Virus record (IMG/VR): IMGVR_UViG_3300043410_000565
Coordinates: 28,236 to 92,235 of that record
Length of the DNA stretch: 64,000 nt
DNA from: a virus
Taxonomy: Duplodnaviria > Heunggongvirae > Uroviricota > Caudoviricetes
Direction: 5' to 3' (one strand)
The notes beneath the pieces were generated by a model. It did no database searches. It saw nothing but the letters and a program-made list of their open reading frames with translations, and was not told where the DNA came from. A program made the position numbers and the translations under genes. This document shows positions 3,685 to 62,015 of this stretch, piece by piece. Position 1 is the stretch's first letter, and each line of letters opens with the position of its first letter.

Positions 3685-4041
3685 ATGGCAAAAGCTCAAA
3701 TTATTCAAGACTCTATCGACGGCATCTTCGGCGAGAAGGTTAATGTTGGTGACCAAGTTATGGTCGTCACGACTGGTTATTCTCATCGAGTGAATGTTCG
3801 TAAGGGTATCTACAAAGGTTATGTTGATACAGGAATGGGCTGGCGAAAGAGCAAGAAAGCAAAGATCGAGATCAATACCACTCGTTCTATTCAAGTGAAA
3901 CCCGATGGCAATGAGTTTTGCTGGAACAAGGATTATGATTCCAAGACATGGCCAGAAGTCAGCAAGACTCTGACCCGCAAGGAAGTTCCTTATACATACA
4001 TGACAACCCTTCAACTCAACCGCATCGCAACTATCAAGTAA
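3685..4041 (+). CDS. hypothetical protein
   Basis: AAGGA RBS; ORF track. Confidence 0.8.
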   Translation: MAKAQIIQDSIDGIFGEKVNVGDQVMVVTTGYSHRVNVRKGIYKGYVDTGMGWRKSKKAKIEINTTRSIQVKPDGNEFCWNKDYDSKTWPEVSKTLTRKEVPYTYMTTLQLNRIATIK

Positions 4042-4316
4042 TGGATAAAGATATCATCCTCGCAGCAGCCAATATGATGTCCGATAAAGGATATGGACTG
4101 GGTAATGAACCCGATTATCTCAAGTTCAAGGCAGGTCGCTTGCTCCTGACGTTGGTCAAGTATCGGGATGCGGGGATGAATTCTTACACCTATTTCTGGA
4201 AGAACGAACAAGAGCGAGTTACATCCCCATTCTTTGATTCTGAGAAAGAAGCCTATGCATGGATCAAACAGGTTGACGAATGGGATAATTGGAAAGCAAA
4301 CAAGGATATCGTATGA
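4041..4316 (+). CDS. hypothetical protein
   Basis: TAATG coupling gives start 4041. Confidence 0.75.
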   Translation: MDKDIILAAANMMSDKGYGLGNEPDYLKFKAGRLLLTLVKYRDAGMNSYTYFWKNEQERVTSPFFDSEKEAYAWIKQVDEWDNWKANKDIV

Positions 4317-4660
4317 GAGTAATTATTGCTGGTGGTCGCGATATCCATGACTACAACCTAGTGCTTGATGCTATCAACGAATGTAACTTCAACATTCAGG
4401 CTGTTGTATCTGGTGGAGCCAAAGGTGTTGATGCTCTTGGTGAGCGATATGCTGAGTCTGCCGATGTACCATTGCATATATTTGAAGCTGATTGGGAGAC
4501 GCATGGTCGTGCTGCTGGTCCAATCCGTAACCGAAAGATGGCAGAGAATGCCGATGCTTTAATCGCTATCTGGGATGGTAAATCCCGTGGCACTAAGAAT
4601 ATGATTGAAACCGCAACCAAGAAAGGTTTGCTGGTATTTGTAAAGAGGACTGATGTATGA
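4313..4660 (+). CDS. SLOG-superfamily protein (YspA/DUF2493-like)
   Basis: MRVIIAGGRD, VSGGAKGVDALG, GRAAGPIRNRKM, WDGKSRGTKNMI. Confidence 0.85.
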   Translation: MRVIIAGGRDIHDYNLVLDAINECNFNIQAVVSGGAKGVDALGERYAESADVPLHIFEADWETHGRAAGPIRNRKMAENADALIAIWDGKSRGTKNMIETATKKGLLVFVKRTDV

Positions 4661-4911
4661 TGGCTACAATGGAACAAAGAATGGCTCAACTAGAGGCTCG
4701 TATTGCCCAGCTAGAAGCACGCATCGCTAATCAAGAAGCGAAGACTATGACGTTTGGTCCATCTACTCCGTATCAACCATTCCCTGTCTCCCCATATCCA
4801 GATCCCAATAGCCCGTGGAATCCTCCATATACAATCACATGTAAGCTGGCTGATGGTACGACCAAGGAAATGACATTTACAACTCCAATCGTGGCACAGA
4901 CAAATGGCTGA
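4657..4911 (+). CDS. hypothetical protein with N-terminal coiled coil and Pro-rich segment
   Basis: ORF with overlapping start/stop. Confidence 0.7.
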   Translation: MMATMEQRMAQLEARIAQLEARIANQEAKTMTFGPSTPYQPFPVSPYPDPNSPWNPPYTITCKLADGTTKEMTFTTPIVAQTNG

Positions 4912-5269
4912 TACTGTATTAATCCTAATGACGCTTCTGATCCTGAAGCACTTCATCGTTGATTTCCCTCTTCAAGGACCATATCAATGGATGAATAAAG
5001 GGACATATCTACATCCTGGTGGCTTACTGCATGCGTTCATGCACGGAGTAGCAACCATGCTATGTTTTACTTGGTATGCTCCGCAAGCTGCGTTCTGGTT
5101 GGGTTTATTCGATGCCGTTATCCATTATCACGTGGACTGGGCAAAGATGAATATCAATGCCAAATTCGGTTGGAAAGCCGACCAACATCCACAATTCTGG
5201 TATCTAATGGGAGCCGATCAGCTGGCTCATTATCTAACATATATCTGGTTAATCTATCTTGTAGTATGA
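4904..5269 (+). CDS. DUF3307-like membrane protein
   Basis: KHFIVDFPLQ, LLHAFMHG, HYHVDWAK, GADQLAH; hydrophobic. Confidence 0.8.
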   Translation: MADTVLILMTLLILKHFIVDFPLQGPYQWMNKGTYLHPGGLLHAFMHGVATMLCFTWYAPQAAFWLGLFDAVIHYHVDWAKMNINAKFGWKADQHPQFWYLMGADQLAHYLTYIWLIYLVV

Positions 5270-5715
5270 AGCATCGTGTATGGGTCATTGCTGGTAACGA
5301 ACACCAGTATCATGATTATGTTAGGGGTAAACCCTTAAATGGTGATAAGAAGTATTCGTATGTCTATGCGCCAGATACTCTCCGTGGGTTTGTTAATCCG
5401 CATGGTGTATTCATAGGTACATGGAGACATCGGGCTGATATTATCCCCATTCTTGATATGCTGATCATGTCCACTAATGAGGACACGAAGAATCTGCATA
5501 AGATTCGGCTTGAGTTAATGATGAACGCATCCCATACTCAAACTCTCGCTGCCACCATGCAGACTGGGTATAGTGATGCCGCTGATTTGTTAGCCAAAGC
5601 CATCGACCAAGAAGTATTGGATCAAATGGTGGATAAGCCAAAGATCGTGCAGACTGTATTCGATATTATGGAAGAATTCGATACACCCATGACATGGAAA
5701 GGATTCGTGAAATGA
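5266..5715 (+). CDS. hypothetical protein
   Basis: ATGA overlap gives start 5266. Confidence 0.75.
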   Translation: MKHRVWVIAGNEHQYHDYVRGKPLNGDKKYSYVYAPDTLRGFVNPHGVFIGTWRHRADIIPILDMLIMSTNEDTKNLHKIRLELMMNASHTQTLAATMQTGYSDAADLLAKAIDQEVLDQMVDKPKIVQTVFDIMEEFDTPMTWKGFVK

Positions 5716-52504: not shown

Positions 52505-54355
52505 ATGAAAAAGTTCCTGTTGGTGAATTACTCGCCAGCTACATCCAACGATGGGTCACAAGAGGTTCCATACCTCTGGATGACCCTTCATTCATACTTC
52601 AAACGTAATTCTGTAAACCCAAATGCATGGGAATGGTTAGAACCAATATATTCACCATTAGCAGAAACCCCAGAAGAATTAGTAGATAAAATTGTATCTC
52701 AAACGCCAGACGTTATTGGGATATCTTGTTACATCTGGAACAGCTCTCTTACTTTTTGGGTGGCTGAGCAAGTTAAATTAAAGCTACCTAATGTAAAGAT
52801 TATCGCTGGTGGACCAAGTTTAAATTATTGGAAACATCAAGATTGGTTTAAGATATACTGGTATATTGACCTTGTTTGTAATTACAATGGATACGGTGAA
52901 CCCTTTATAACATCATATTTGGATGGTGCTTCGGTAAAGGAAATTCCATATGCGATATATCCAGACCTTGGTCGGCACGTGTGGAATGAATCAACTGCAA
53001 AAATTACTGTAAAAGAATTTAAGTGGCCAGCACCATATAAAGATAATATTGAATATCTAAAACAGTTTAAAATAAAACACCCTGATGTTAAGGGGATAGT
53101 TGATACTTCTCGTGGATGCCCCTATGCTTGCGTATTCTGTGAGTGGGGTGGCGGCACTTCCACCAAAGTGGCATTTAGACCACTTGTAGACACGCTAGAA
53201 GAACTAGAAATTATGTTTAGTATCTTACAGCCGAAATACGTTGATATTAACAATGCCAATTTTGGTGTTATTAAAGAAGATTTAGTATGCGCTGAAAAGA
53301 TTTGCGAATTGCAAGAAAAATATAAATGTGTACAAGACGTTAATGTGTATGGACCAACTAAGTCTAATAAACTAAGGTTGAAGCAGATATTAAATCTATT
53401 TGCGAAGGTTGGTATAATCCAAGATATGAAACTTTCCGTCCAGTCAACTAATAAACAAATCCTTGATAATATCAAACGTGTTGATATGACATACTCTGAT
53501 CAAAAAGATTTGTTTATCTCAGTTGCAGAAGAAAATAATATCCAATTAAAATTTGAAGGTATTTTGGGGCTTCCAGGGGAAACCGTTGAAACATTCTATC
53601 AAACTATATCTGATTTGGTTGACGATCAAACTCACCCAATGATGTATGAGTGGATTATGTTAGATTCATCTCCAGCTGCAAGAGAACCATATTTCAGCGA
53701 AATGGGTATTGTAACAAAAGAAGTAAAATTCAGAAGAAATGCGTATCTAAACCACACAAAACCTAAGAAAGACGAAGCTATCGGTGACGTTGGTTATCGT
53801 AATATTTTACACGATACTGTATTCGCTAATATAGAAGCTCCAAGGTATGTTGTTGGTACATATTCATACAACTCAGTAGATTGGGTTGAGATGAAGATGG
53901 CTCGTCACGTGTTCTATACTCTTTATAAAACACATTTGATTCAACCATACATTAGACACCTAAGATCTATTGGCGTCCCTATCAATGAATTCTTCAAACG
54001 TTCATTTAGAGGATTCTTCTTAAGAATCCCTCAAGTAAAAATAGCGCATGATGTAATGTTGAAGCAGGTACAATCTGATGAACTACTAGACCCATATTAT
54101 GTAAGTATCGCTGATAACTTACCATACTTTAGCTACTATTCTACTATTAAGTTTGCCATTCTGTTAGACCCTAAGATGTTCTTTAAACTATTTGGAGAAT
54201 GGTTGGTGTCAGCGTATGGTGATACTCACTTTATTGATATTTCTAATGCGATTGGCAACGCTGTTCAAACACCAATGTATAGTGAAATGCCACCAAGAGA
54301 AAAGATATCATCAATCATCGCAATGTGCGAAATGGTAGAATTACCTTTGGTCTAA
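52505..54355 (+). CDS. cobalamin-binding (class B) radical SAM enzyme
   Basis: B12-domain-like PDVIGISCYIWN...IIAGGP; TSRGCPYACVFCEWG; LSVQS; ILGLPGET. Confidence 0.88.
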   Translation: MKKFLLVNYSPATSNDGSQEVPYLWMTLHSYFKRNSVNPNAWEWLEPIYSPLAETPEELVDKIVSQTPDVIGISCYIWNSSLTFWVAEQVKLKLPNVKIIAGGPSLNYWKHQDWFKIYWYIDLVCNYNGYGEPFITSYLDGASVKEIPYAIYPDLGRHVWNESTAKITVKEFKWPAPYKDNIEYLKQFKIKHPDVKGIVDTSRGCPYACVFCEWGGGTSTKVAFRPLVDTLEELEIMFSILQPKYVDINNANFGVIKEDLVCAEKICELQEKYKCVQDVNVYGPTKSNKLRLKQILNLFAKVGIIQDMKLSVQSTNKQILDNIKRVDMTYSDQKDLFISVAEENNIQLKFEGILGLPGETVETFYQTISDLVDDQTHPMMYEWIMLDSSPAAREPYFSEMGIVTKEVKFRRNAYLNHTKPKKDEAIGDVGYRNILHDTVFANIEAPRYVVGTYSYNSVDWVEMKMARHVFYTLYKTHLIQPYIRHLRSIGVPINEFFKRSFRGFFLRIPQVKIAHDVMLKQVQSDELLDPYYVSIADNLPYFSYYSTIKFAILLDPKMFFKLFGEWLVSAYGDTHFIDISNAIGNAVQTPMYSEMPPREKISSIIAMCEMVELPLV

Positions 54356-55684
54356 TTTCTTATTGAAAATCATTTCAAAGGCTTTGTTTTGAATAGCCTT
54401 GTGATAAACTTTTTCAATCGCGCAGTTTGTGTAGAACACCTCATCAGGTACTTCGATTGGGCAGTTAGATTTACACAGTCTAAACACCTCACATGAGCGA
54501 CAGTGACGTTCATAGCGATCCAAATCTACCCTTGCTAAAGAAACGTTCTCGAGTTCATCAATATGACCGCCGATGAATGATTCATCTGTATGCGGGCAAG
54601 TTCTAACATTACCCTTCATATCAACGGATAATACTCCAGAGTCATCAACCCCACACGAAGTAATATAAGTTGGGAGGATCTGTTTACGCAGAGTCTTGGT
54701 GTATGGTAAAACTCCAAGGTGTGACTCTATCAAGGAGTTGTTTAATAGTTTATGGTCTACACCCTTAAAGCGTTGTTCAATGCTATCGTCAATGAAGCGT
54801 TTGATGATATCTTTGAACTTTGCTAGACTTTCACCGTGGATGACATGGTGAGAAGAACCACCATCATGATTGTGACCAACTGTCCAGCTGATCGCAGTCT
54901 TTCTTAAATCAATACCGTTCTGTGTACAATATTCATAGAAGAACTTATTGATTTCGTACAAGTCATAGTTCGTGTGAGAAAGAACTGGGTTAAAGCTGAA
55001 TTGTATGTTGCTATACTTCTGAGCTTCTTTAAGAATATCAACCTTCTTGTGTAGGAATTCTTCACCACGCAGTCGTTCGTGTCCTGGACCATCATGCGAC
55101 AAACCAATAGAAACAGTACCTTTAAGAGTCTTGAAGAACTCAATATGTTTCATCTGTAGAGGTGTACCATTGGTTGGGATAAACCACGTCAACCCCTCGC
55201 GATCAAACTCGCGCATTAACACTTCCATCGTCTTCCAATATAGAAGCGTTTCTCCACCCCACAAATCAATCTTCTCTAAACGAGATAAATCAAGTCGTTT
55301 GATTTGTTCAATAAACGTGTCAACTGTTGTTATCTTCTCACGTTCGTCTGGATTGCCAATATCCTTCTGCATGCAATATGAACAATCGTAATTGCAAGCG
55401 TGACCGAGAAGAACCCTAATCCAGAATGGCTTGTTTGATTTAGCCCTAGTTCTTACTTCTCCATTTACACTCTCATAGAAAGCATCAGGTTCAGTTGGTT
55501 CAGAAAGCGGTTCTTTATTACTATTGTAGATACCGTTGGTGTAGTTATCATAATAGAACTGAGTTCCGTCTTCAAATTTGAACTGAATAAAACTCTCAGC
55601 ATCTCGTGCAAGAGGAGTTCTTTGAGTTTCCTTCTTTAGCTTACTGCGTAGAGAAGCGAGGCTGATGCTGTATGTGTGGCTCAT
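54341..55684 (-). CDS. radical SAM/SPASM protein
   Basis: GHACNYDCSYC, WGGETL, SHDGP, SPASM CGVD...GNVRTC...CRSCEVFRLCKSNCP. Confidence 0.92.
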   Translation of the reverse strand: MSHTYSISLASLRSKLKKETQRTPLARDAESFIQFKFEDGTQFYYDNYTNGIYNSNKEPLSEPTEPDAFYESVNGEVRTRAKSNKPFWIRVLLGHACNYDCSYCMQKDIGNPDEREKITTVDTFIEQIKRLDLSRLEKIDLWGGETLLYWKTMEVLMREFDREGLTWFIPTNGTPLQMKHIEFFKTLKGTVSIGLSHDGPGHERLRGEEFLHKKVDILKEAQKYSNIQFSFNPVLSHTNYDLYEINKFFYEYCTQNGIDLRKTAISWTVGHNHDGGSSHHVIHGESLAKFKDIIKRFIDDSIEQRFKGVDHKLLNNSLIESHLGVLPYTKTLRKQILPTYITSCGVDDSGVLSVDMKGNVRTCPHTDESFIGGHIDELENVSLARVDLDRYERHCRSCEVFRLCKSNCPIEVPDEVFYTNCAIEKVYHKAIQNKAFEMIFNKKLDQR

Positions 55685-56721
55685 TTTGATAAGATAGAAA
55701 CTACTGGAGTTTGTCCATTGTGTAAACCATATGGTGTTTTAGTCCACCCCTCTAGAGAATTAAAGAAAGAACACTCTCTGGGATACATCACATATGGTAT
55801 GAAGTTAAAATCTCTATTCACTTTCGTGTTTAGAGTCGTCGTGAAATACTCTTTAAACTTACTTATGTTTGACTGGTTCGCCCAATCAGCGTATAACTCT
55901 TGTTTCCCTTTTACAACTCTATACAGGAATTCGTTCATATCAAACTCTTCAGCAAATGTATAGAATGGGTCAATAGATAAATCGCAAGCATCATCGCTTG
56001 CATAAAAGAAGTTATTGTAATACAAATGCAACGCTTCTTTATTTACCCTGATTATCTTATCATCTGTTGTCTCAATCCAAGTGTTTTGATACTCTGCCCA
56101 AGGGTGATTCAATATCTTACGCTCTTGTCTAAAATCATTATGTACACAATTGTAGACACGGCTATTATAACCCCATTCTATGATTTGGTCAAATATTTCT
56201 GAGTCTCCACAATCAATGTATTTGATCTTTTTTATTGTAAACCTATCATGTGCCCGTTTGATAAAATCAAGAAGTTTATCGACCCCAATATGCTTTACAA
56301 ACGTTGAACTAATAGATAAGTCAGCGATACCTTTAATTTGTAAATCTTTTAATTGCAAAGTTCTAATTAGGGAGTTATCGGTAACGCAGAGTTCAAACAT
56401 ATTACCGTTGGAGACATACCAATTGTAATCAGCTTTATGGAATTGCTTTAGATAGTATAAGTCGTCGTTTGTTCTAATCGAACCGAACCTTGGCAAGAAG
56501 TCCATCCAAACTTTTTCATACTTCTTTAAATCATTCCCATAGTTTGGTAGGGACTTTGTCTTTTGTAGGTTGTTCTTGATGTAACAAACCTCGCATCCAG
56601 CATCACAATAGTAGCGTTTACCAAGGCTGAAGTTTATATCATAATCCAAAGATCTAAGCGCATCTTCTTTTACCCAGTATGCGTTTAGATCGGTGTAATT
56701 ATCAAAGTCATTTCTGTCCAT
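55681..56721 (-). CDS. divergent radical SAM-like protein
   Basis: YYCDAGCEVCYI (CxxxCxxC) near the N-terminus; start MDRNDF chosen from the overlap with the upstream stop. Confidence 0.6.
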   Translation of the reverse strand: MDRNDFDNYTDLNAYWVKEDALRSLDYDINFSLGKRYYCDAGCEVCYIKNNLQKTKSLPNYGNDLKKYEKVWMDFLPRFGSIRTNDDLYYLKQFHKADYNWYVSNGNMFELCVTDNSLIRTLQLKDLQIKGIADLSISSTFVKHIGVDKLLDFIKRAHDRFTIKKIKYIDCGDSEIFDQIIEWGYNSRVYNCVHNDFRQERKILNHPWAEYQNTWIETTDDKIIRVNKEALHLYYNNFFYASDDACDLSIDPFYTFAEEFDMNEFLYRVVKGKQELYADWANQSNISKFKEYFTTTLNTKVNRDFNFIPYVMYPRECSFFNSLEGWTKTPYGLHNGQTPVVSILSK

Positions 56722-57769
56722 CGGCGATCCAGTGGTAGAAAGATTTCTTTTCATGTAGCTTGGTTGTATAGTGTACCATTGCGTTTTGAATCTGATAGAA
56801 CTGAACGCATTTAGTCCCAGGTTCAGTATCAAACATCTTATGTAGATATTTCAATCCGCATAAAGTTCTAGAAGGGCAACCTGTGCACTTCTCTGGTACA
56901 ACCTCGTCTGGTTCGCCGTTTCTAGTCAGGCTGATATCACCAACCCATTTACCGACTTGATATTCTGGACGCTTATATTCGCAGAAGTCATACTCTGAGT
57001 AAATGTAACCATCTGGTGAAAGGATAATTTTGTAGTGATCGCCGAAGTAGTTCTTGTCAGTAACTCCATAGTTTCCGTCAATGAATACCATAATATTGTA
57101 GTTGTAAAGAACGTTCACGAAACGGATGAAAGCGTCAGCGTATTGAGCCATATCCATATCTTCAATTAGAGTCTTAAACTTCTGCCCACCTCTATGATGA
57201 CGTAGAGGTATAAGGTTGATTGATCGAACCTTGCAGCGAGAAACTTTATCTAGGATATCTTTGATACAATCTAGACTGAACACCTTACGGTCTTGAACTG
57301 GCATAACGAATTGCCAGTGAATGGGGATATTGTAATACCCGCACAACTCAATAGACTTGTAAATATCAAATTGTTCACGGTTGGCTTCTTGGTAAATGAA
57401 GTCATATGATATGGTGAACTTTAAATACTTGCGCCATTTCTCCAAGAACCATTGTTCCTTTTCAAACAGAGCAGCATTAGTTGTGATTGATACATATAAA
57501 CCCTTGCCGTCTAAGTATTTGTCTTTAAGGGTTTCTAGGATTTCATCCATTCGCTTTACATAGAGGAATGGTTCTCCGCCATGTAAAGCAATACGGTCTA
57601 CTTTATTTGGTTGATCAAATGCCCACTCAAAAAATGTTTCCAGTTCTTGGATGTATTTCTTTGACATATTCTGCCCACCGAGACTTTTAATATAGTCTCG
57701 GTCGCAGTAAGTGCAGTTGAAATTACAAGTATCTCCAAGATAGATGGAGATAGTATTCACATTCTTCAT
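56708..57769 (-). CDS. radical SAM protein with degenerate SPASM/twitch
   Basis: GDTCNFNCTYC, HGGEPFL, TTNA, ISYD, ILSPDGYIY, CTGCPSRTLC. Confidence 0.9.
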   Translation of the reverse strand: MKNVNTISIYLGDTCNFNCTYCDRDYIKSLGGQNMSKKYIQELETFFEWAFDQPNKVDRIALHGGEPFLYVKRMDEILETLKDKYLDGKGLYVSITTNAALFEKEQWFLEKWRKYLKFTISYDFIYQEANREQFDIYKSIELCGYYNIPIHWQFVMPVQDRKVFSLDCIKDILDKVSRCKVRSINLIPLRHHRGGQKFKTLIEDMDMAQYADAFIRFVNVLYNYNIMVFIDGNYGVTDKNYFGDHYKIILSPDGYIYSEYDFCEYKRPEYQVGKWVGDISLTRNGEPDEVVPEKCTGCPSRTLCGLKYLHKMFDTEPGTKCVQFYQIQNAMVHYTTKLHEKKSFYHWIADGQK

Positions 57770-59070
57770 AATCCCATTGATACTTTACGATAATTTCTAG
57801 CTGATTGTTTTTTAGCTACATCGTCTTGTAGATCTAGGTATAACTTGACGATCTTTTGACACATATCGTCTGGACGGAATAACGGTGTTCCAGTGGACAC
57901 GTTTCCAGCTGGGCATTGATAACAGTAGTTGCGATAATCGCAGGACTTACATTGTTCTTCCTCTGTGTGCATTTTGTTGTAGAGGTCTTGGAATGTAGTA
58001 TAACGATCTATGTGAACACGGTCTTCAAAGATATTACCTAACACAGTAGGTTTAACTGCATCTACTTCTTTCATATTAGTGAAGAAGTAGCAACCAGTAA
58101 AGTCACCAGAACCGTCGATCGCGATCATATCGCTTCCAACTAAACAGTTGTTTTCAACCTTTTGACCAACACCTTCTGAAAACGAGATTTCAAAATCAGC
58201 GTATTTGTCGATAAGGTGAATAATATCTGAGTGTAAGTTAGACCAAGTGTCAGTATTCCAGCTGATATAACCAACGCTAGAATCGTGAACTAGCGGATGA
58301 ACGATGATATTACGGATACCAATTCCATATAGTTTCTCCATATATTCTTTGAAGTATGGAGCGTGTTCTTGCGCAAGAGTACATCTAAAGAAGATACGGT
58401 CTTTAGCGTGGCGTGGTAAACCAGAAACCGTGTCGATGATGTGGTCAATTTGTTCTTGTTTTAACTCACGGTGATCCAACTCAACTTGTAGTGTATCGAG
58501 GGAAATCATCATATATGTGAAGTCATACTCGAAGTATACCTTACAAAATTCTTTGTTTAAAAGGATACCGTTAGTAATCATGCTAACAGCTTGTCCCTTA
58601 TCAAAGAAAGTCTTTGTTAGGTATTCCTTGTTTCTTTCCAAGAAATTAACAATAAGGTCTTTGTGAATTAACGGTTCTCCACCAAAGAACTGGAATCGTT
58701 TATTCTTAGCTTTGGAGTTATCCAATAACCAGTTGTATGCTTTTAGTAGAGAGTCTTCTGTAAATCTACCATAATCTTTCTTATGCTGTTCGTAGCAATA
58801 TGAACAAGAAAGGTTACATGCATTGGTTAGAATCACATTCATATGTCCAATATCTTGAAATAGATGTTGGACAGCTGAGAATGAAACAACCTTTTCTTCA
58901 GGTGATGGAAGAATGGAGATTAGTTTGTTTTGCTTGGAAAGCCCCTTCGGAGTGATAATATCTTCAGTTCTAAATTGAAGAGTCCCATCAGGGGAAACCC
59001 CGACCGTCGCTTCATGGTCGGGGTTGATTGATTTTCTAGACTTGTGAAATACCAAAGGATATTCGCTCAT
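57766..59070 (-). CDS. radical SAM/SPASM protein
   Basis: TNACNLSCSYC, FFGGEPL, TNG, ISLD, CLVG...GDFTGC...CKSCDYRNYCYQCPAGN; GAGG RBS before ATG 59070. Confidence 0.92.
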   Translation of the reverse strand: MSEYPLVFHKSRKSINPDHEATVGVSPDGTLQFRTEDIITPKGLSKQNKLISILPSPEEKVVSFSAVQHLFQDIGHMNVILTNACNLSCSYCYEQHKKDYGRFTEDSLLKAYNWLLDNSKAKNKRFQFFGGEPLIHKDLIVNFLERNKEYLTKTFFDKGQAVSMITNGILLNKEFCKVYFEYDFTYMMISLDTLQVELDHRELKQEQIDHIIDTVSGLPRHAKDRIFFRCTLAQEHAPYFKEYMEKLYGIGIRNIIVHPLVHDSSVGYISWNTDTWSNLHSDIIHLIDKYADFEISFSEGVGQKVENNCLVGSDMIAIDGSGDFTGCYFFTNMKEVDAVKPTVLGNIFEDRVHIDRYTTFQDLYNKMHTEEEQCKSCDYRNYCYQCPAGNVSTGTPLFRPDDMCQKIVKLYLDLQDDVAKKQSARNYRKVSMGL

Positions 59071-59086
59071 AATATACCTCAAAAAG

Positions 59087-60040
59087 TTAATGTCGGATAA
59101 TCACAAAATCGTATCTTAGTTGTTCCTGTTTAGAAGAAATATAATCCAACTCAGTACCTGTGACCCAACGATATGAAAGTGTCGTTACGTCTTTATTTAG
59201 TGAGATTGTAATAGTGTTGCTGTCACGTTGATAATTGCCAGAACATTCAACATCCAAACGGATACGTGGAAGTTCATCATTACCTAAACGGCGACCAGCG
59301 ATCTTATGGAATTTAGAGTTGTAACCAAATAAATCAATCACAACAGTATCGCTAGTCGTAGCAATAATGTTTGGACCAATAAACTTAGAGTTAGAATCTA
59401 GACTCGGAGTAAACACTGAATCTCTTAGATTACCGTCGTGAGAGTTTAAGAACTCGATAACGTCAGTTCTATCTCGTAGATTAATTTCAGACTCGTCGCT
59501 CTTAATGATAGAAGACTCTAGCAAGTTATCATTGATCACAACGTAGTATACATCAGTATCAACCATCTTGTAGAACGCCATCCAAATAGCTGCAAATGGA
59601 TTACCTTCTAACACGCTTTGGCGAGTTAGGTTAGTTGGTCGTTTATCTAGAACATTTCTACCAAAGAAGCAAGATTGTTCAATAACTGTATTCTGAGAAA
59701 CCATTTCATCCGTGAAAAGGTAGCCAAAATAAACAACATCCAAACCGCTATCTAAAAATGCCTTTGCTTTTTCTAAGTCGATTTCCTTGATGCCCATAGT
59801 TTGGTTTTCAGTTGGCATAGCCATGGCTAAAAGTAGCTTGCCCTCGGCATCGTTATAGATGCCTAGCTTTTTATCAATCTTGATGTAAGAATTAAAGAAG
59901 TTGTCGTACTTCTTAATCTTAGTTAGATCTACCTGACCAAGACCAGGTGGCAATCCATCATAATAAACGTTCAACCCTTCGGCTACGTTCGCCCAAGAGT
60001 GGTTGACTGAGTTCTCAGTGTTAAAGAAAAATGTACTCAT
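59087..60040 (-). CDS. hypothetical protein in the rSAM operon
   Basis: TAATG coupling to the Cys-rich peptide gene; no recognised motif. Confidence 0.75.
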   Translation of the reverse strand: MSTFFFNTENSVNHSWANVAEGLNVYYDGLPPGLGQVDLTKIKKYDNFFNSYIKIDKKLGIYNDAEGKLLLAMAMPTENQTMGIKEIDLEKAKAFLDSGLDVVYFGYLFTDEMVSQNTVIEQSCFFGRNVLDKRPTNLTRQSVLEGNPFAAIWMAFYKMVDTDVYYVVINDNLLESSIIKSDESEINLRDRTDVIEFLNSHDGNLRDSVFTPSLDSNSKFIGPNIIATTSDTVVIDLFGYNSKFHKIAGRRLGNDELPRIRLDVECSGNYQRDSNTITISLNKDVTTLSYRWVTGTELDYISSKQEQLRYDFVIIRH

Positions 60041-60243
60041 TAGCAAGATCCTCTTCCGCAAGCGCAGTTACAATTGCAGTTGCAATTAGTTGAATAGTCG
60101 TCGTAAAATAGATGAGTGTGGTCAGTTAGCGAATCCAACACTTCTAGCATTTGTTTATATGTATCAGCGGTTACGATATCCCCCGCTGCTTTAGAGTCTA
60201 CGGTTAGACCAGTGGTCACCGTGCTTAGGTTTTCAACTGCCAT
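60040..60243 (-). CDS. Cys-rich candidate rSAM substrate (67 aa)
   Basis: ends DYSTNCNCNCNCACGRGSC; GGAG RBS; adjacent to rSAM genes. Confidence 0.8.
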   Translation of the reverse strand: MAVENLSTVTTGLTVDSKAAGDIVTADTYKQMLEVLDSLTDHTHLFYDDYSTNCNCNCNCACGRGSC

Positions 60244-60246
60244 TTA

Positions 60247-60642
60247 TTAAGCTCCAGTTCTATCGTCGATAGAATGATAGTGATCATTACCAGACAGAAT
60301 ACTAGATCTTAGAGTCTGGTGTAAAGATGCTGTTATGTCATCACCTGACGCAACTGTTGTTGAGATATCAGCCGAAGTTGCAAGAGAAGCAGAAGTATTC
60401 TCTGGGTTATTATCGTATGATGTACCATACGGTGAAGTGTTACCATACGCTTCCCACCATTGATCCGGAACAGTGTGATAGTGATTATTGAAGCTGTTCC
60501 AGCAAGAAATTAGAGAATTAATCTGAGCCGCAGTGATTGTACTGCCAGCTGCGATCGCTGCCTTCAAATCGGTGATTGTCGTTTGAAGACTAGCTGAGGT
60601 AGGACCAACCATACCTGATGTAGTTCTCGTTATTTGAGGCAT
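60247..60642 (-). CDS. small HxH-repeat virion-like protein
   Basis: two (A/S)G..ITA...HYH repeats; GGA RBS; first gene after a late-promoter motif. Confidence 0.75.
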   Translation of the reverse strand: MPQITRTTSGMVGPTSASLQTTITDLKAAIAAGSTITAAQINSLISCWNSFNNHYHTVPDQWWEAYGNTSPYGTSYDNNPENTSASLATSADISTTVASGDDITASLHQTLRSSILSGNDHYHSIDDRTGA

Positions 60643-60670: not shown

Positions 60671-60720
60671 TATTTAGCCCTGTTGGATTACCTAAATAAA
60701 AGGTAGCTAAATATAAATAT
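60671..60720. promoter_or_regulatory. divergent late-promoter motifs
   Basis: CTAAATA on minus (60677-60671); CTAAATA at 60692 and 60708 and TATAAATA at 60713 on plus. Confidence 0.65.
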
Positions 60721-60752: not shown

Positions 60753-62015
60753 ATGCCATCTATTATTACAAGAACGACCTCCGGAACCGACGCAACGGTC
60801 AAGGGGTTGCCATTAACCAACGCTGAAATTGACGGTAACTTTATAGCGATAAACCACGCTATCATTGCAACTGGCGATTTAACTGGGTTTACAGACAGAT
60901 CAGCCAGCACTCTCGTTTGGAACAACGCCACTAGAACTATTTTTCTAGCCCCAGTGGTTGGTTCTTTTAGCGTGTATTATAGAGGATCAGAACTAACTGT
61001 ATCTGACTCTCTTCAGTATCAAATCCCAAATAACACTGGTGGTCGATGGATTATTTTAAACCCATCAACGCTGCAGTTAGAAGAGTCTTTAACGATTGAT
61101 TTCGAAACTGACCTCCCAGTTGCTTGGATTTATTATAATCACGTTGACGCAGTGGCAATTGTAGCTTCTGATGAAAGACATACTGCTTCTAGAGATATTC
61201 AATGGCACATCTCCAAGCATGCTGAAGTTGGAACTACATGGTTATCTGGCGGCGACTGCACATATAATCTAAACAACCAAACATCACTGTCCCTTGGTTT
61301 CACTGATATCACAATTGCTGATGAAGATATTAACCACGATATATCTCACAGCATAACACCAAACGGGTTCTACCAACAAATCCTTTCATCAAACGCGATG
61401 ATCCCAGTTGTGTATAAGAACGGTTCCGTTACAAGCCAAATCGCTGCAGCGAACCCACCGTGGCAAGTTAACACAACTGCTAAGTATAATCAAGTCATTG
61501 GTAACAGTGGTAGTCTTGTAGATGCGCCAAACAACACTTATGTAAATTATTACATTATCGCCACTAATGACATGACGTTCCCAATCAAGGCTGTGGTTGG
61601 AACTGGTAATTATGCAACCTTATTGCAGGCATTCAATGAACAATTTGATGTTGCCAACCTTCTTATGGAAGAAGTTGTTGCAATGTATCAAATCACTCTG
61701 CATACAAATACCGCATACACAAACAAGGTTGTTATTGCTTCTGTTAGAAAATTATCTAGCCAAGCAAACGTCTTACCAGATCAAATCTTAAATGGTCCAT
61801 CCCACGCTGGATTGAGCAAGCTATCAAATGATGATCACTTACAGTATGTTCATATTTCTAACGCTAGAACAATCACTGCAGCGCACACGTTTAATGGCGT
61901 TCAAACTTTTGTAAACGGTATTAAAATTAACTCAAAACCAGTTGTAAACCTTGATGGTGCTAATAAACAATACGTTGATCAGCAAGCATTACTGATGTCA
62001 TTCTTAAATGCTTAA
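60753..62015 (+). CDS. tail fibre-like structural protein
   Basis: N-terminal KGLPLTNAEIDGNF (similar to 51275); C-terminal LSNDDHLQY and DGANKQYVD motifs. Confidence 0.7.
   Translation: MPSIITRTTSGTDATVKGLPLTNAEIDGNFIAINHAIIATGDLTGFTDRSASTLVWNNATRTIFLAPVVGSFSVYYRGSELTVSDSLQYQIPNNTGGRWIILNPSTLQLEESLTIDFETDLPVAWIYYNHVDAVAIVASDERHTASRDIQWHISKHAEVGTTWLSGGDCTYNLNNQTSLSLGFTDITIADEDINHDISHSITPNGFYQQILSSNAMIPVVYKNGSVTSQIAAANPPWQVNTTAKYNQVIGNSGSLVDAPNNTYVNYYIIATNDMTFPIKAVVGTGNYATLLQAFNEQFDVANLLMEEVVAMYQITLHTNTAYTNKVVIASVRKLSSQANVLPDQILNGPSHAGLSKLSNDDHLQYVHISNARTITAAHTFNGVQTFVNGIKINSKPVVNLDGANKQYVDQQALLMSFLNA

Follow-up and report, generated by a model that had tools for sequence, protein, structure and literature searches.

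What is the N-terminal part of a short cysteine-rich peptide for, when its gene lies beside several radical SAM (rSAM) enzymes in the tail-fibre region of a T4-like phage? The leaders of RiPPs are usually seen as recognition tags that RRE domains read and that can then be discarded, whereas the initial annotation of this locus had proposed that the peptide and its neighbour share a fibre-type trimer domain, so that the leader would be a structural assembly domain displaying a modified Cys core on the virion. The two open reading frames concerned were found on the minus strand of the window (the whole 64,000-nucleotide stretch of viral DNA that was analysed): a 67-aa peptide (P0001; 60040..60243), with 27 homologous clusters, and a 131-aa partner protein (P0002; 60247..60642), which matches phrog_31780, of unassigned function, over residues 5–75 (4.2e-12); the three sequence stretches on which that proposal was built were found in these two products. 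The peptide gene begins 3 nt past the stop codon of the partner (TAA TAA ATG), with GGAG upstream, and its own stop overlaps the ATG of the next gene (TAATG). The reading favoured here, with slightly better than even confidence, is that the two proteins are halves of one unit, in which the Cys tail of the peptide is modified by rSAM enzymes.

A module shared by the peptide and its partner

The sharing of a module was borne out, with one copy in the peptide, two in the 131-aa protein, and a similarity above chance; the motif, initially worded G..(I/V)TA...HxH, is better given for the three homologous copies as HxHxxxD after an amphipathic helix, the whole pattern being G-x-x-[IV]-x-A...helix...H-x-H-x-x-x-D. 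Module 1 of the partner (G33–D60, GSTITAAQINSLISCWNSFNNHYHTVPD; 60463..60546, minus strand) was placed by conservation and by its homology to module 2 and the peptide, module 2 (G100–D127, GDDITASLHQTLRSSILSGNDHYHSIDD; 60262..60345, minus strand) by conservation and by hhalign against module 1, and module 3, in the peptide (G21–D48, GDIVTADTYKQMLEVLDSLTDHTHLFYD; 60100..60183, minus strand), by hhalign against the other two. Comparison of family profiles (hhalign) relates module 1 to module 2 with 98% probability (E 2e-13), and the peptide to module 1 with 94.5% (E 7.8e-8) and to module 2 with 96.7% (E 4.4e-10); in BLASTP, both modules of the 131-aa protein align with the peptide (E 6e-4 and 3e-3). 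When the complete genome (160,850 bp) was scanned in six frames for G..[IVLA].{15-24}H.H...D, exactly three sites appeared, all in these two genes, and the profile of the 131-aa family matched, in the same genome, its own gene and the peptide only (peptide E 1.1e-4). HxHxxxD is the most conserved feature in both families: H54 and H56 of module 1 are present in all 125 representatives of the partner family, H121 and H123 of module 2 in 124 of them, and positions 60 and 127 hold Asp or Glu in 125 of 125.

The partner starts with a strand motif (MPQITRTTSG), followed by a helix at 16–31, module 1, a low-confidence linker of about 40 aa, and module 2; its AF2 model (pLDDT 76) has helices at 16–31, 38–52, and 105–120, with a helix predicted directly before each HxH. 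The 131-aa family counts 264 representatives at E ≤ 1e-3, and exactly two HxH motifs occur in 136 of 149 representatives, the peptides having one. Some members carry extra domains, namely a Gly_rich_2 insertion that separates the two modules (6e-13), a Hint domain at the C-terminus (2.6e-9), or beta-rich domains without Pfam match that were judged PA14-like by eye; an 847-aa candidate with 13 matched stretches (P0094) was dropped from the family as an unrelated repetitive ORF. Neither Pfam nor NCBIfam assigned a family to the peptide, to its 131-aa partner, or to the 317-aa product of the adjacent gene, and a PDB sequence search with the 131-aa family profile gave chance matches only, all with E ≥ 0.7. 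The 131-aa model had no Foldseek match (E ≥ 3.9 in the PDB, ≥ 2.6 in AFDB clusters), and its best VIA match (Z 4.8) is at the noise level of helical bundles. The family formed by these modules is new, structure searches found no fold relative of it, and no paper describing it was found in the literature.

One account of the sharing takes the module as a common recognition sequence and the 131-aa protein as a second substrate, with two leaders and two cores. Paralogous precursors with a shared leader are common in RiPP clusters, and the stretch that follows module 1, D..[FY]GN, is conserved in the 131-aa family; nevertheless, most members of this family have no cysteine, only 4–8 residues lie beyond module 2, and the three-module protein described below has no recorded rSAM neighbour, so that a second substrate is highly improbable.

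Modules 1 and 2 and a peptide-type module 3 also occur within single chains without a Cys core, in P0172 (221 aa) and P0108 (332 aa), where the third module is matched with probabilities of 95.5% (E 1.5e-8) and 89.5% (E 2e-6), respectively. Both are singletons, from one assembly each, and P0172 has no relative in IMG/VR; among the neighbours of P0172, the one of the two for which gene calls were available, no Radical_SAM family is recorded. Longer chains containing the peptide itself were sought without success, a negative result of little weight. A 103-aa form with an apparent second HxH (P0030) is not a fusion and reflects ORF calling in L018, a phage with TGA=Trp, where two frameshifts interrupt the partner gene and the last part of its module 2 is read continuously with the peptide. 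The N-terminal part of the peptide is homologous to both partner modules and, in these single chains, fused to them; this agrees with the initial proposal that it behaves as an assembly domain and not as a disposable leader, as does its predicted docking on the same two modules.

Predicted docking of the peptide on its partner

Complex prediction for partner, peptide, and Zn gave an ipSAE of 0.63 (0.63, 0.62, and 0.70 in the separate runs), against 0.01 for the best control, with at least 83% of contacts in common between runs and a partner pLDDT of at least 61. The score passes a mark that 58 of 80 solved complexes and 2 of 110 mismatched pairs also reach, a calibration set that differs from the present complex in that the latter was built on its own unpaired alignments with a riding metal; since none of the solved complexes resembles it, a pass owed to structures seen in training is improbable. 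The predicted interface takes only residues 7–49 from the peptide, leaves the Cys core outside, and includes residues 121–123 of the protein. Since equivalent residues of the modules touch in the predicted complex (protein 44 with peptide 33, and protein 112/115 with peptide 32/35/36), the packing of the helices would be parallel and in register. His56 of the protein and His44 of the peptide are predicted in contact, with an expected error of 1.5 A.

These predictions suggest a split unit to which the partner would supply two modules and the peptide the third, each an amphipathic helix ending in HxHxxxD. The three helices would pack in parallel, with the N-terminal helix of the partner as an antiparallel fourth, and the three HxH motifs would meet at one end, where six His probably hold one metal ion; this His6 site is proposed from one predicted His–His contact and the list of interface residues. 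The metal would then be arranged as in trimeric phage fibres, yet by unlike chains, and the docked peptide would leave its C-terminal (Cys-X)n tail free.

The fibre-type trimer domain of the initial annotation implies another arrangement, in which each protein is homotrimeric as are T4 gp12 and gp37, the HxH motifs of identical chains bind a metal at the three-fold axis, and a thin fibre has the Cys tail as its tip. HxH motifs of trimeric phage fibres do bind Fe (PMC11705849), and such sites (Fe in T4 gp37, Zn in T4 gp12, those of R-pyocin and others) receive His-x-His three times, as is proposed here; the likeness extends to the locus, which lies among tail-fibre genes, and the alternating cysteines would all face one side of a beta-strand. 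T4-type fibres, however, have three identical chains and a beta-helical shaft, whereas here HxH follows a predicted alpha-helix, no fibre fold appeared among the Foldseek or VIA matches of the 131-aa model, and the proteins are very short, without shaft repeats. Homotrimers would also leave unexplained the three-module single chains, the confident heterodimer prediction, and the constant count of two modules plus one, which speaks for a pseudo-trimer of two unlike chains. The homotrimeric fibre is accordingly regarded as improbable.

The cysteine core and the enzymes encoded beside it

The Cys core (C54–C67, CNCNCNCACGRGSC; 60043..60084, minus strand), defined by the alignment of homologues, has five conserved cysteines that alternate, across the homologues too, with Asn, Asp, Glu, Gln, or Ala, and then an invariant R-G. 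Among the 28 aligned sequences (the peptide of the window and 27 homologues), H42, T43, H44, Y47, D48, D49, Y50, C54, C56, N57, C58, C60, R64, and G65 are invariant, and the last Cys (C67) is not conserved. Such an alternation would be as expected for thioether cross-linking and, because the N, D, E, and Q between the cysteines are acceptor-type residues, Cys-to-Asn/Asp/Glu thioethers appear to be the most likely chemistry; these residue types are those of the acceptor classes of PapB and QhpD (PMC13692751).

The short precursor gene adjoins an rSAM with a SPASM domain, an association conserved in about 20 loci. The gene that starts at the ATG overlapping the peptide stop (59087..60040, minus strand; ATG at 60040) encodes a conserved accessory protein of 317 aa, with homologues in nearly all loci, for which AF2 (pLDDT 86, pTM 0.86) predicts an alpha/beta domain at the N-terminus and an Ig-like beta-sandwich at the C-terminus; residues 203–317 resemble Ig-like domains with Z up to 7.5. 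No protease-like match was obtained for this model, in whole-model fold searches that matched the C-terminal Ig-like domain only and barely probed the N-terminal domain.

It is followed by a radical SAM/SPASM enzyme of 438 aa (57766..59082, minus strand; Pfam Radical_SAM 5.5e-17, SPASM 3.2e-5). In NCBIfam it comes closest to the PapB ranthipeptide maturase (2.6e-35), scoring 122 bits where the cut-off is 340, so that even the best match does not reach the curated cut-off of a named maturase family. The same enzyme matches the maturases of CXXX-repeat and Cys-every-fifth peptides, with scores far below the cut-offs, and, weakly, the QhpD family (5.4e-17). The radical SAM enzyme of 353 aa (56708..57769, minus strand; Pfam Radical_SAM 5.8e-12) is orthologous to RP12 ORF077. 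A divergent CX3CX2C protein with a CDAGCEVC motif and a match to phrog_36229 (55681..56832, minus strand) has a longest ORF of 383 aa, within which its true start probably lies; its orthologues have CX3CX2C in every full locus, and N-terminal extensions are short in RP12, with only 48 residues ahead of the motif in ORF076. The last enzyme on this strand, a radical SAM/SPASM protein of 447 aa (54341..55684, minus strand; Pfam and NCBIfam scans), shares 44% identity (E 9e-130) with the single rSAM of the minimal locus L020, its orthologue being the sole maturase kept beside a one-Cys peptide (…FYDDYTTACGG); this pairing of one Cys with one rSAM links the remaining enzymes with the (Cys-X)n repeat. 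A B12-binding radical SAM enzyme of 616 aa (52505..54355, plus strand; Pfam B12-binding 8.3e-8, Radical_SAM 7.1e-6) is convergent with the operon and is an accessory of the closest relatives only, adjoining the cluster in L003 and L004. The tail of the peptide would thus be modified by four radical SAM enzymes aided by the 317-aa Ig-domain protein, with probable help in this phage from the B12-dependent enzyme.

A classical RiPP pathway would assign other roles to the same genes, with the 131-aa protein as a PqqD/RRE-like chaperone, the leader later cut, and a cross-linked toxin, metallophore, or signal released at lysis. In line with this, Pfam and NCBIfam scans detected no PqqD or RRE domain in the rSAMs, the short extension of RP12 ORF076 leaves little before its CX3CX2C motif, and the predicted binding involves the leader only, with the core free. 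Against it, no protease or exporter/transporter gene was seen in about 20 loci, HxHxxxD is present in all three modules and more conserved than usual leader motifs, and three-module chains exist without a Cys core, P0172 with no rSAM on record beside it; the Gly-rich, Hint, and beta-rich domains fused to partner variants would, moreover, be odd in a mere leader chaperone. The RiPP-chaperone reading is considered unlikely, although it partly overlaps the split unit, presenting the peptide and staying bound to it being compatible. In the split unit, the N-terminal part is probably not removed, although host proteases could remove it, and the product would be a small heterodimeric protein with a cross-linked tail.

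Long leaders of the NHLP and Nif11 type are homologous to a real protein domain and not a short tag, and they are cleaved at a Gly-Gly site; they are not known to have a partner completing their fold. The present leader resembles them in its homology to a protein domain and differs in that a neighbour is predicted to complete the fold. The QhpC leader is later removed as well. QhpD, a PapB/CteB-like rSAM, introduces Cys–Asp/Glu thioethers into QhpC, the small Cys-rich subunit of quinohemoprotein amine dehydrogenase; the QhpC leader is engaged by an RRE, and the chain is kept as a complex subunit (PMC13692751). The likeness lies in the small Cys-rich chain, the SPASM rSAM, and the fate as a complex subunit, chemistry and retention being proposed by inference in the phage system, which differs in its four or five rSAMs, in having no detectable RRE or protease, in its leader being a structural module, and in its phage context. 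Ranthipeptide and Cys-repeat systems (PapA/PapB, SCIFF/CteB, NxxC, CXXX-repeat, and Cys-every-fifth) likewise have a short precursor with periodic Cys beside SPASM rSAMs, whereas the system described here has a Cys period of two, four maturases per 14-residue core, a phage location, and a leader paired with a homologous two-module protein. The predicted arrangement, a peptide held in a three-copy bundle while radical enzymes modify its tail, has not been described before. A leader forming a structural third of a His-rich bundle would be a new way to hold an rSAM substrate, and the bundle itself a new small metal-binding fold.

Distribution of the cluster and its relation to tail fibres

The gene order is fixed, with the two-module protein, the Cys peptide, the ~310-aa protein, and four radical SAM enzymes, and the peptide directly follows the two-HxH protein in about 20 fetched loci, the exception being L008/L009, where a ~275-aa protein lies between them. 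Both families are conserved and almost confined to phages: the system is widespread in uncultured T4-like and jumbo phages, and one locus only was found in a set of representative genomes covering 185,579 species of bacteria and archaea. The cluster had no megablast match in 50,697 phage records, and tblastn returned RP12 and RP31 only; a narrower family alignment, used as query for related loci, gave two loci. The two cultured Ralstonia phages, RP12 and RP31, carry the complete cluster, in which the gene of a 65-aa peptide is unannotated, and this makes the system directly testable.

In most loci, the cluster lies among tail-fibre genes, with neighbours that match tail-fibre PHROGs. In the window, a fibre-like protein of 420 aa is transcribed divergently (60753..62015, plus strand), and its N-terminus (MPSIITRTTSG) repeats that of the partner, these two ORFs being the only ones in the genome that begin with this motif; a 107-aa protein next to it matches a tail-fibre PHROG. 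This context suggests that the product of the split unit most likely acts together with the tail fibres, at their tip or as an accessory, and it may be located in the virion. Two observations agree better with the classical RiPP pathway. One full cluster, on a Bdellovibrio MAG contig, has cell-like flanks and no fibre genes, and LC-MS/MS of excised gel bands from RP31 virions detected 32 proteins, among which neither ORF71 nor the partner homologue, ORF70, appears; the YomR-like fibre proteins encoded next to the RP31 cluster were equally missed. A search of the literature on phage rSAM/RiPP systems among tail fibres found nothing relevant.

PAAR-repeat proteins and the gp38 adhesins of the T2/S16 type sit as single chains on the end of a trimeric spike or fibre; they are small units with three-fold pseudo-symmetry inside one chain, PAAR having a metal site as well, and their members vary in extra domains, as the partner family does. 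By analogy, the His bundle may be a pseudo-three-fold adaptor seated on the end of a trimeric tail fibre, as PAAR is on the spike, and displaying at the fibre tip a thioether knot cross-linked by the enzymes, a tentative proposal to which a rather low probability is given. The analogy is architectural only, with no relation in sequence or fold detected (Pfam PAAR gave no match, and the PAAR fold was absent from the fold-search matches of the 131-aa model), and contact with a fibre is proposed. If true, the adaptor would be the first case of RiPP-type post-translational cross-linking of a virion component, and of a leader peptide that provides a third of a metal-binding fold, the remainder coming from a partner protein. 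The position of the cluster amid host-recognition genes raises the possibility of an unrecognised phage route to build or harden adsorption structures.

Only two copies of the consensus of T4 late promoters, TATAAATA, lie in the window, no more than chance would give. DUF3050, absent from this genome, for which a control search gave no match at all, accompanies the cluster in RP12, L005, L015, L017, and L024.

Modules shared by the peptide and its partner

The 131-aa partner (60247-60642, minus strand) is followed three bases later by the ORF of the 67-aa Cys-tailed peptide (60040-60243, minus strand). The initial annotation had aligned the two, and the partner stretches, AGSTITAAQINSLISCWNSFNNHYHTVPD and SGDDITASLHQTLRSSILSGNDHYHSIDD, are identical to its wording; the peptide stretch reads ...AGDIVTADTYKQMLEVLDSLTDHTHLFYDDYSTNCNCNCNCACGRGSC. 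The likeness holds up in direct BLASTP alignment of the peptide with both partner stretches (E 6e-4 and 3e-3), and profiles of 125 family representatives match partner module 1 with module 2 (98% probability, E 2e-13) and the peptide family with module 1 (E 7.8e-8) and module 2 (E 4.4e-10); with a smaller profile the E-value was 7.6e-6. In six frames of the whole 160,850-bp genome, a complete IMG/VR virus record of 160.8 kb, the pattern G..[IVLA].{15-24}H.H...D has exactly three sites, all of them these modules, and with the partner-family profile the genome yields no match beyond the 131-aa gene and the peptide.

Homologues of the peptide form 27 clusters, almost all of 65-70 aa, with L33, L36, H42, T43, H44, Y47, D48, D49, Y50, C54, C56, N57, C58, C60, R64 and G65 invariant and the terminal Cys67 not conserved. 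The partner family, which has no name beyond phrog_31780 (unknown function), is far larger, with 264 representatives at E<=1e-3, 167 of them at E<=1e-10, each standing for one 50%-identity cluster; exactly two HxH motifs are present in 136 of the 149 representatives listed. The two pairs are conserved in 125/125 and 124/125 sequences, and every sequence has D or E at the Asp position four residues on; the unit can thus be written as an amphipathic helix leading into HxHxxxD.

In two family members all three modules sit on a single chain: P0172 (221 aa), which ends ...AGDIISRDTFNRMLYTLDFLVDHNHTFDDKYNWVIWSN, and P0108 (332 aa), which contains GQTIAAGTFVRIVAVLMEQVSHVHSFADNYQD and then an unrelated 150-residue domain. 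Both are singletons, from one assembly each, and the peptide family is the best match of their third module (95.5%, E 1.5e-8 and 89.5%, E 2e-6, respectively). The Cys core, the C-terminal end of the peptide, is absent from both, and no Radical_SAM family is recorded on the neighbour genes of the P0172 phage contig. Other partners bear extra domains: Gly_rich_2 between the modules (P0075 and locus L017), a C-terminal Hint domain (P0083, P0107 and locus L013), or beta-rich domains that are PA14-like by eye and have no Pfam match (P0067, P0144). The fusions, together with these partners, indicate that the three-module bundle is a unit with its own function and that the Cys tail, with its enzymes, has been added to it. 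The Hint domain (L013:8614-9972, P0083, P0107) is intein/hedgehog-like and begins CCFPAG, a sign that the two-module domain may undergo self-cleavage or ligation in the phages concerned.

Predicted structure of the complex

The AlphaFold2 model of the partner, made from a 14-sequence alignment, has helices at residues 16-31, 38-52 and 105-120 (pLDDT 76, pTM 0.68) and a poorly defined 40-residue linker; it has no match among solved or predicted folds, and the family has no sequence match in the PDB. Since two modules in the partner and one in the peptide make three, the heterodimer was chosen for complex prediction, with Zn included. It scored 0.63 (runs 0.63, 0.62 and 0.70) against 0.01 for the best control. 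In the calibration set that mark was attained by 58 of 80 solved complexes as against 2 of 110 mismatched pairs, counts that are only a rough guide here because the heterodimer had its own alignments and a ligand. The runs have at least 83% of contacts in common, with a partner pLDDT of at least 61. The predicted interface covers peptide residues 7-49, residues 7-12 contacting partner residues 3-11, and takes nothing from the Cys core. Equivalent module residues touch (protein 44 with peptide 33; protein 112/115 with peptide 32/35/36; His56 with His44), and the three module helices are therefore predicted to be parallel and in register, whereas the N-terminal helix of the partner, with contacts of opposite sense, would be antiparallel. 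The two HxH motifs of the partner family lie 61-89 residues apart, and this long linker, kept throughout, fits parallel packing.

The peptide "leader" most likely supplies the third module of a pseudo-trimer split between it and the partner. Of the original proposal, which made it the assembly domain of a fibre-type trimer, the assembly role stands, the peptide module being homologous to, and predicted to be docked on, the partner; a fibre-type homotrimer is unlikely. In T4 gp37 it is established that HxH motifs bind iron on the fibre's three-fold axis, and the same has been proposed for many marine phages (PMC11705849); the present modules have the same motif and the same idea of a three-fold contribution, but differ in predicted secondary structure and are probably not homotrimeric. 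The architecture would be like that of PAAR-type pseudo-trimeric caps, by analogy only. In the split pseudo-trimer reading, metal binding, the cross-link chemistry and the virion location are putative.

Cluster organization and putative enzyme targets

The peptide stop codon overlaps the ATG of a gene for a 317-aa protein, followed by three recognisable radical SAM (rSAM) enzymes, two with SPASM, a divergent CX3CX2C protein and then a convergent B12-binding rSAM. The confident model of the 317-aa protein (pLDDT 86) has an N-terminal alpha/beta domain and a C-terminal Ig-like sandwich; structure comparisons of this model gave no protease-like match, and a protease or exporter gene is absent from every locus examined.

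The order partner, peptide, ~310-aa protein and four CX3CX2C proteins is found again in 16 IMG/VR loci, in other metagenome contigs, in a 379-kb jumbo-phage contig and in two cultured Ralstonia jumbo phages, RP12 and RP31. Neither of these two has an annotation for its 65-aa Cys-core peptide gene (in RP12 at L001:8989-9186, record 82888-83085), though the flanking ORF074 and ORF075 are annotated. No paper describing the cluster was found in the literature on phage rSAM/RiPP systems among tail fibres.

The cores read (C-X)4-6, then [GTS]-R-G-x-x, where X is N, D, E, Q or A. QhpD thioethers have Asp and Glu as acceptor residues, and PapB-type enzymes form ranthionine links (PMC13692751); the putative chemistry is closest to QhpC/QhpD and ranthipeptides, and the first rSAM is nearest PapB, yet far under the family cut-off. 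A minimal system (L020:3738-6059), between two tail-fibre-like genes, consists of a partner that ends in a beta-rich domain, a 58-aa peptide with one Cys, ending ...HVHVFYDDYTTACGG (…FYDDYTTACGG), and one rSAM, orthologous at 44% identity to the 447-aa enzyme of the window; it is without the 317-aa protein. The target of the 447-aa type would therefore be the first Cys or the FYDDY region, and the remaining enzymes go with the Cys repeat. The system is a new form of rSAM-modified Cys peptides; the phage domain family on which it is built is widespread and had not been described before.

A DUF3050 protein accompanies the cluster in RP12 (L001:15262-16098; Pfam 2e-68, MgoB-like annotation) and, by sequence likeness only, at L024:8562-9326, L005:8784-9530, L015:12846-13583 and L017:15828-16634; it is absent from the window's phage genome. 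In locus L019 a ferritin/rubrerythrin-like gene separates the partner from the 317-aa homologue, while three fatty-acid-desaturase-like genes and one for an Asp/Arg hydroxylase lie upstream in L021. Oxygen-dependent iron enzymes seem to recur as accessories. L021 also carries two tandem partner genes (3844-5295), one for 257 aa including an N-terminal beta-rich domain and one for 131 aa; a single peptide gene follows them, and the 317-aa protein is represented there by two paralogues. In L018 (7669-8312), a contig reading TGA as Trp, the partner gene is broken by two frameshifts and the end of module 2 continues in frame into the peptide, either an assembly error or a real fusion.

Possible virion location

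Display of the cluster product on the virion is plausible. The window is the baseplate and tail-fibre region of a T4-like phage, the cluster genes stand among fibre genes, with flanking genes matching tail-fibre PHROGs in most loci, and partners are fused to kinds of domain found in fibre tips. Genome-wide, the N-terminal motif ITRTTSG is common only to the partner (MPQITRTTSG, 60615-60642, minus strand) and the divergent 420-aa fibre-like protein (MPSIITRTTSG, 60753-60785, plus strand). A structural role is opposed by RP31 virion LC-MS/MS, whose 32 proteins include neither ORF70 nor ORF71 (PMC5468394, Table S3); that analysis covered gel bands only, and adjacent YomR-like proteins were likewise missed. 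The only locus among 185,579 prokaryote species (one genome each), L024 on the Bdellovibrio sp. MAG contig NCGL01000045.1, also argues against it: the full cluster adjoins lipoprotein-like and signal-peptide genes, not fibre genes. Its flanks look cellular; the copy may belong to a cell, or to a phage region that was mis-binned or has degraded.

The T4 late-promoter consensus TATAAATA lies at 60712-60719, 34 nt 5′ of the 420-aa gene; with two copies only within the window, it is not above chance. Divergent fibre-like genes start alike in loci L004 and L005 (MALITTRETSG, MTTIVTRLTTG), and the peptide start, LSTVTTG, is related to the ITRTTSG motif.
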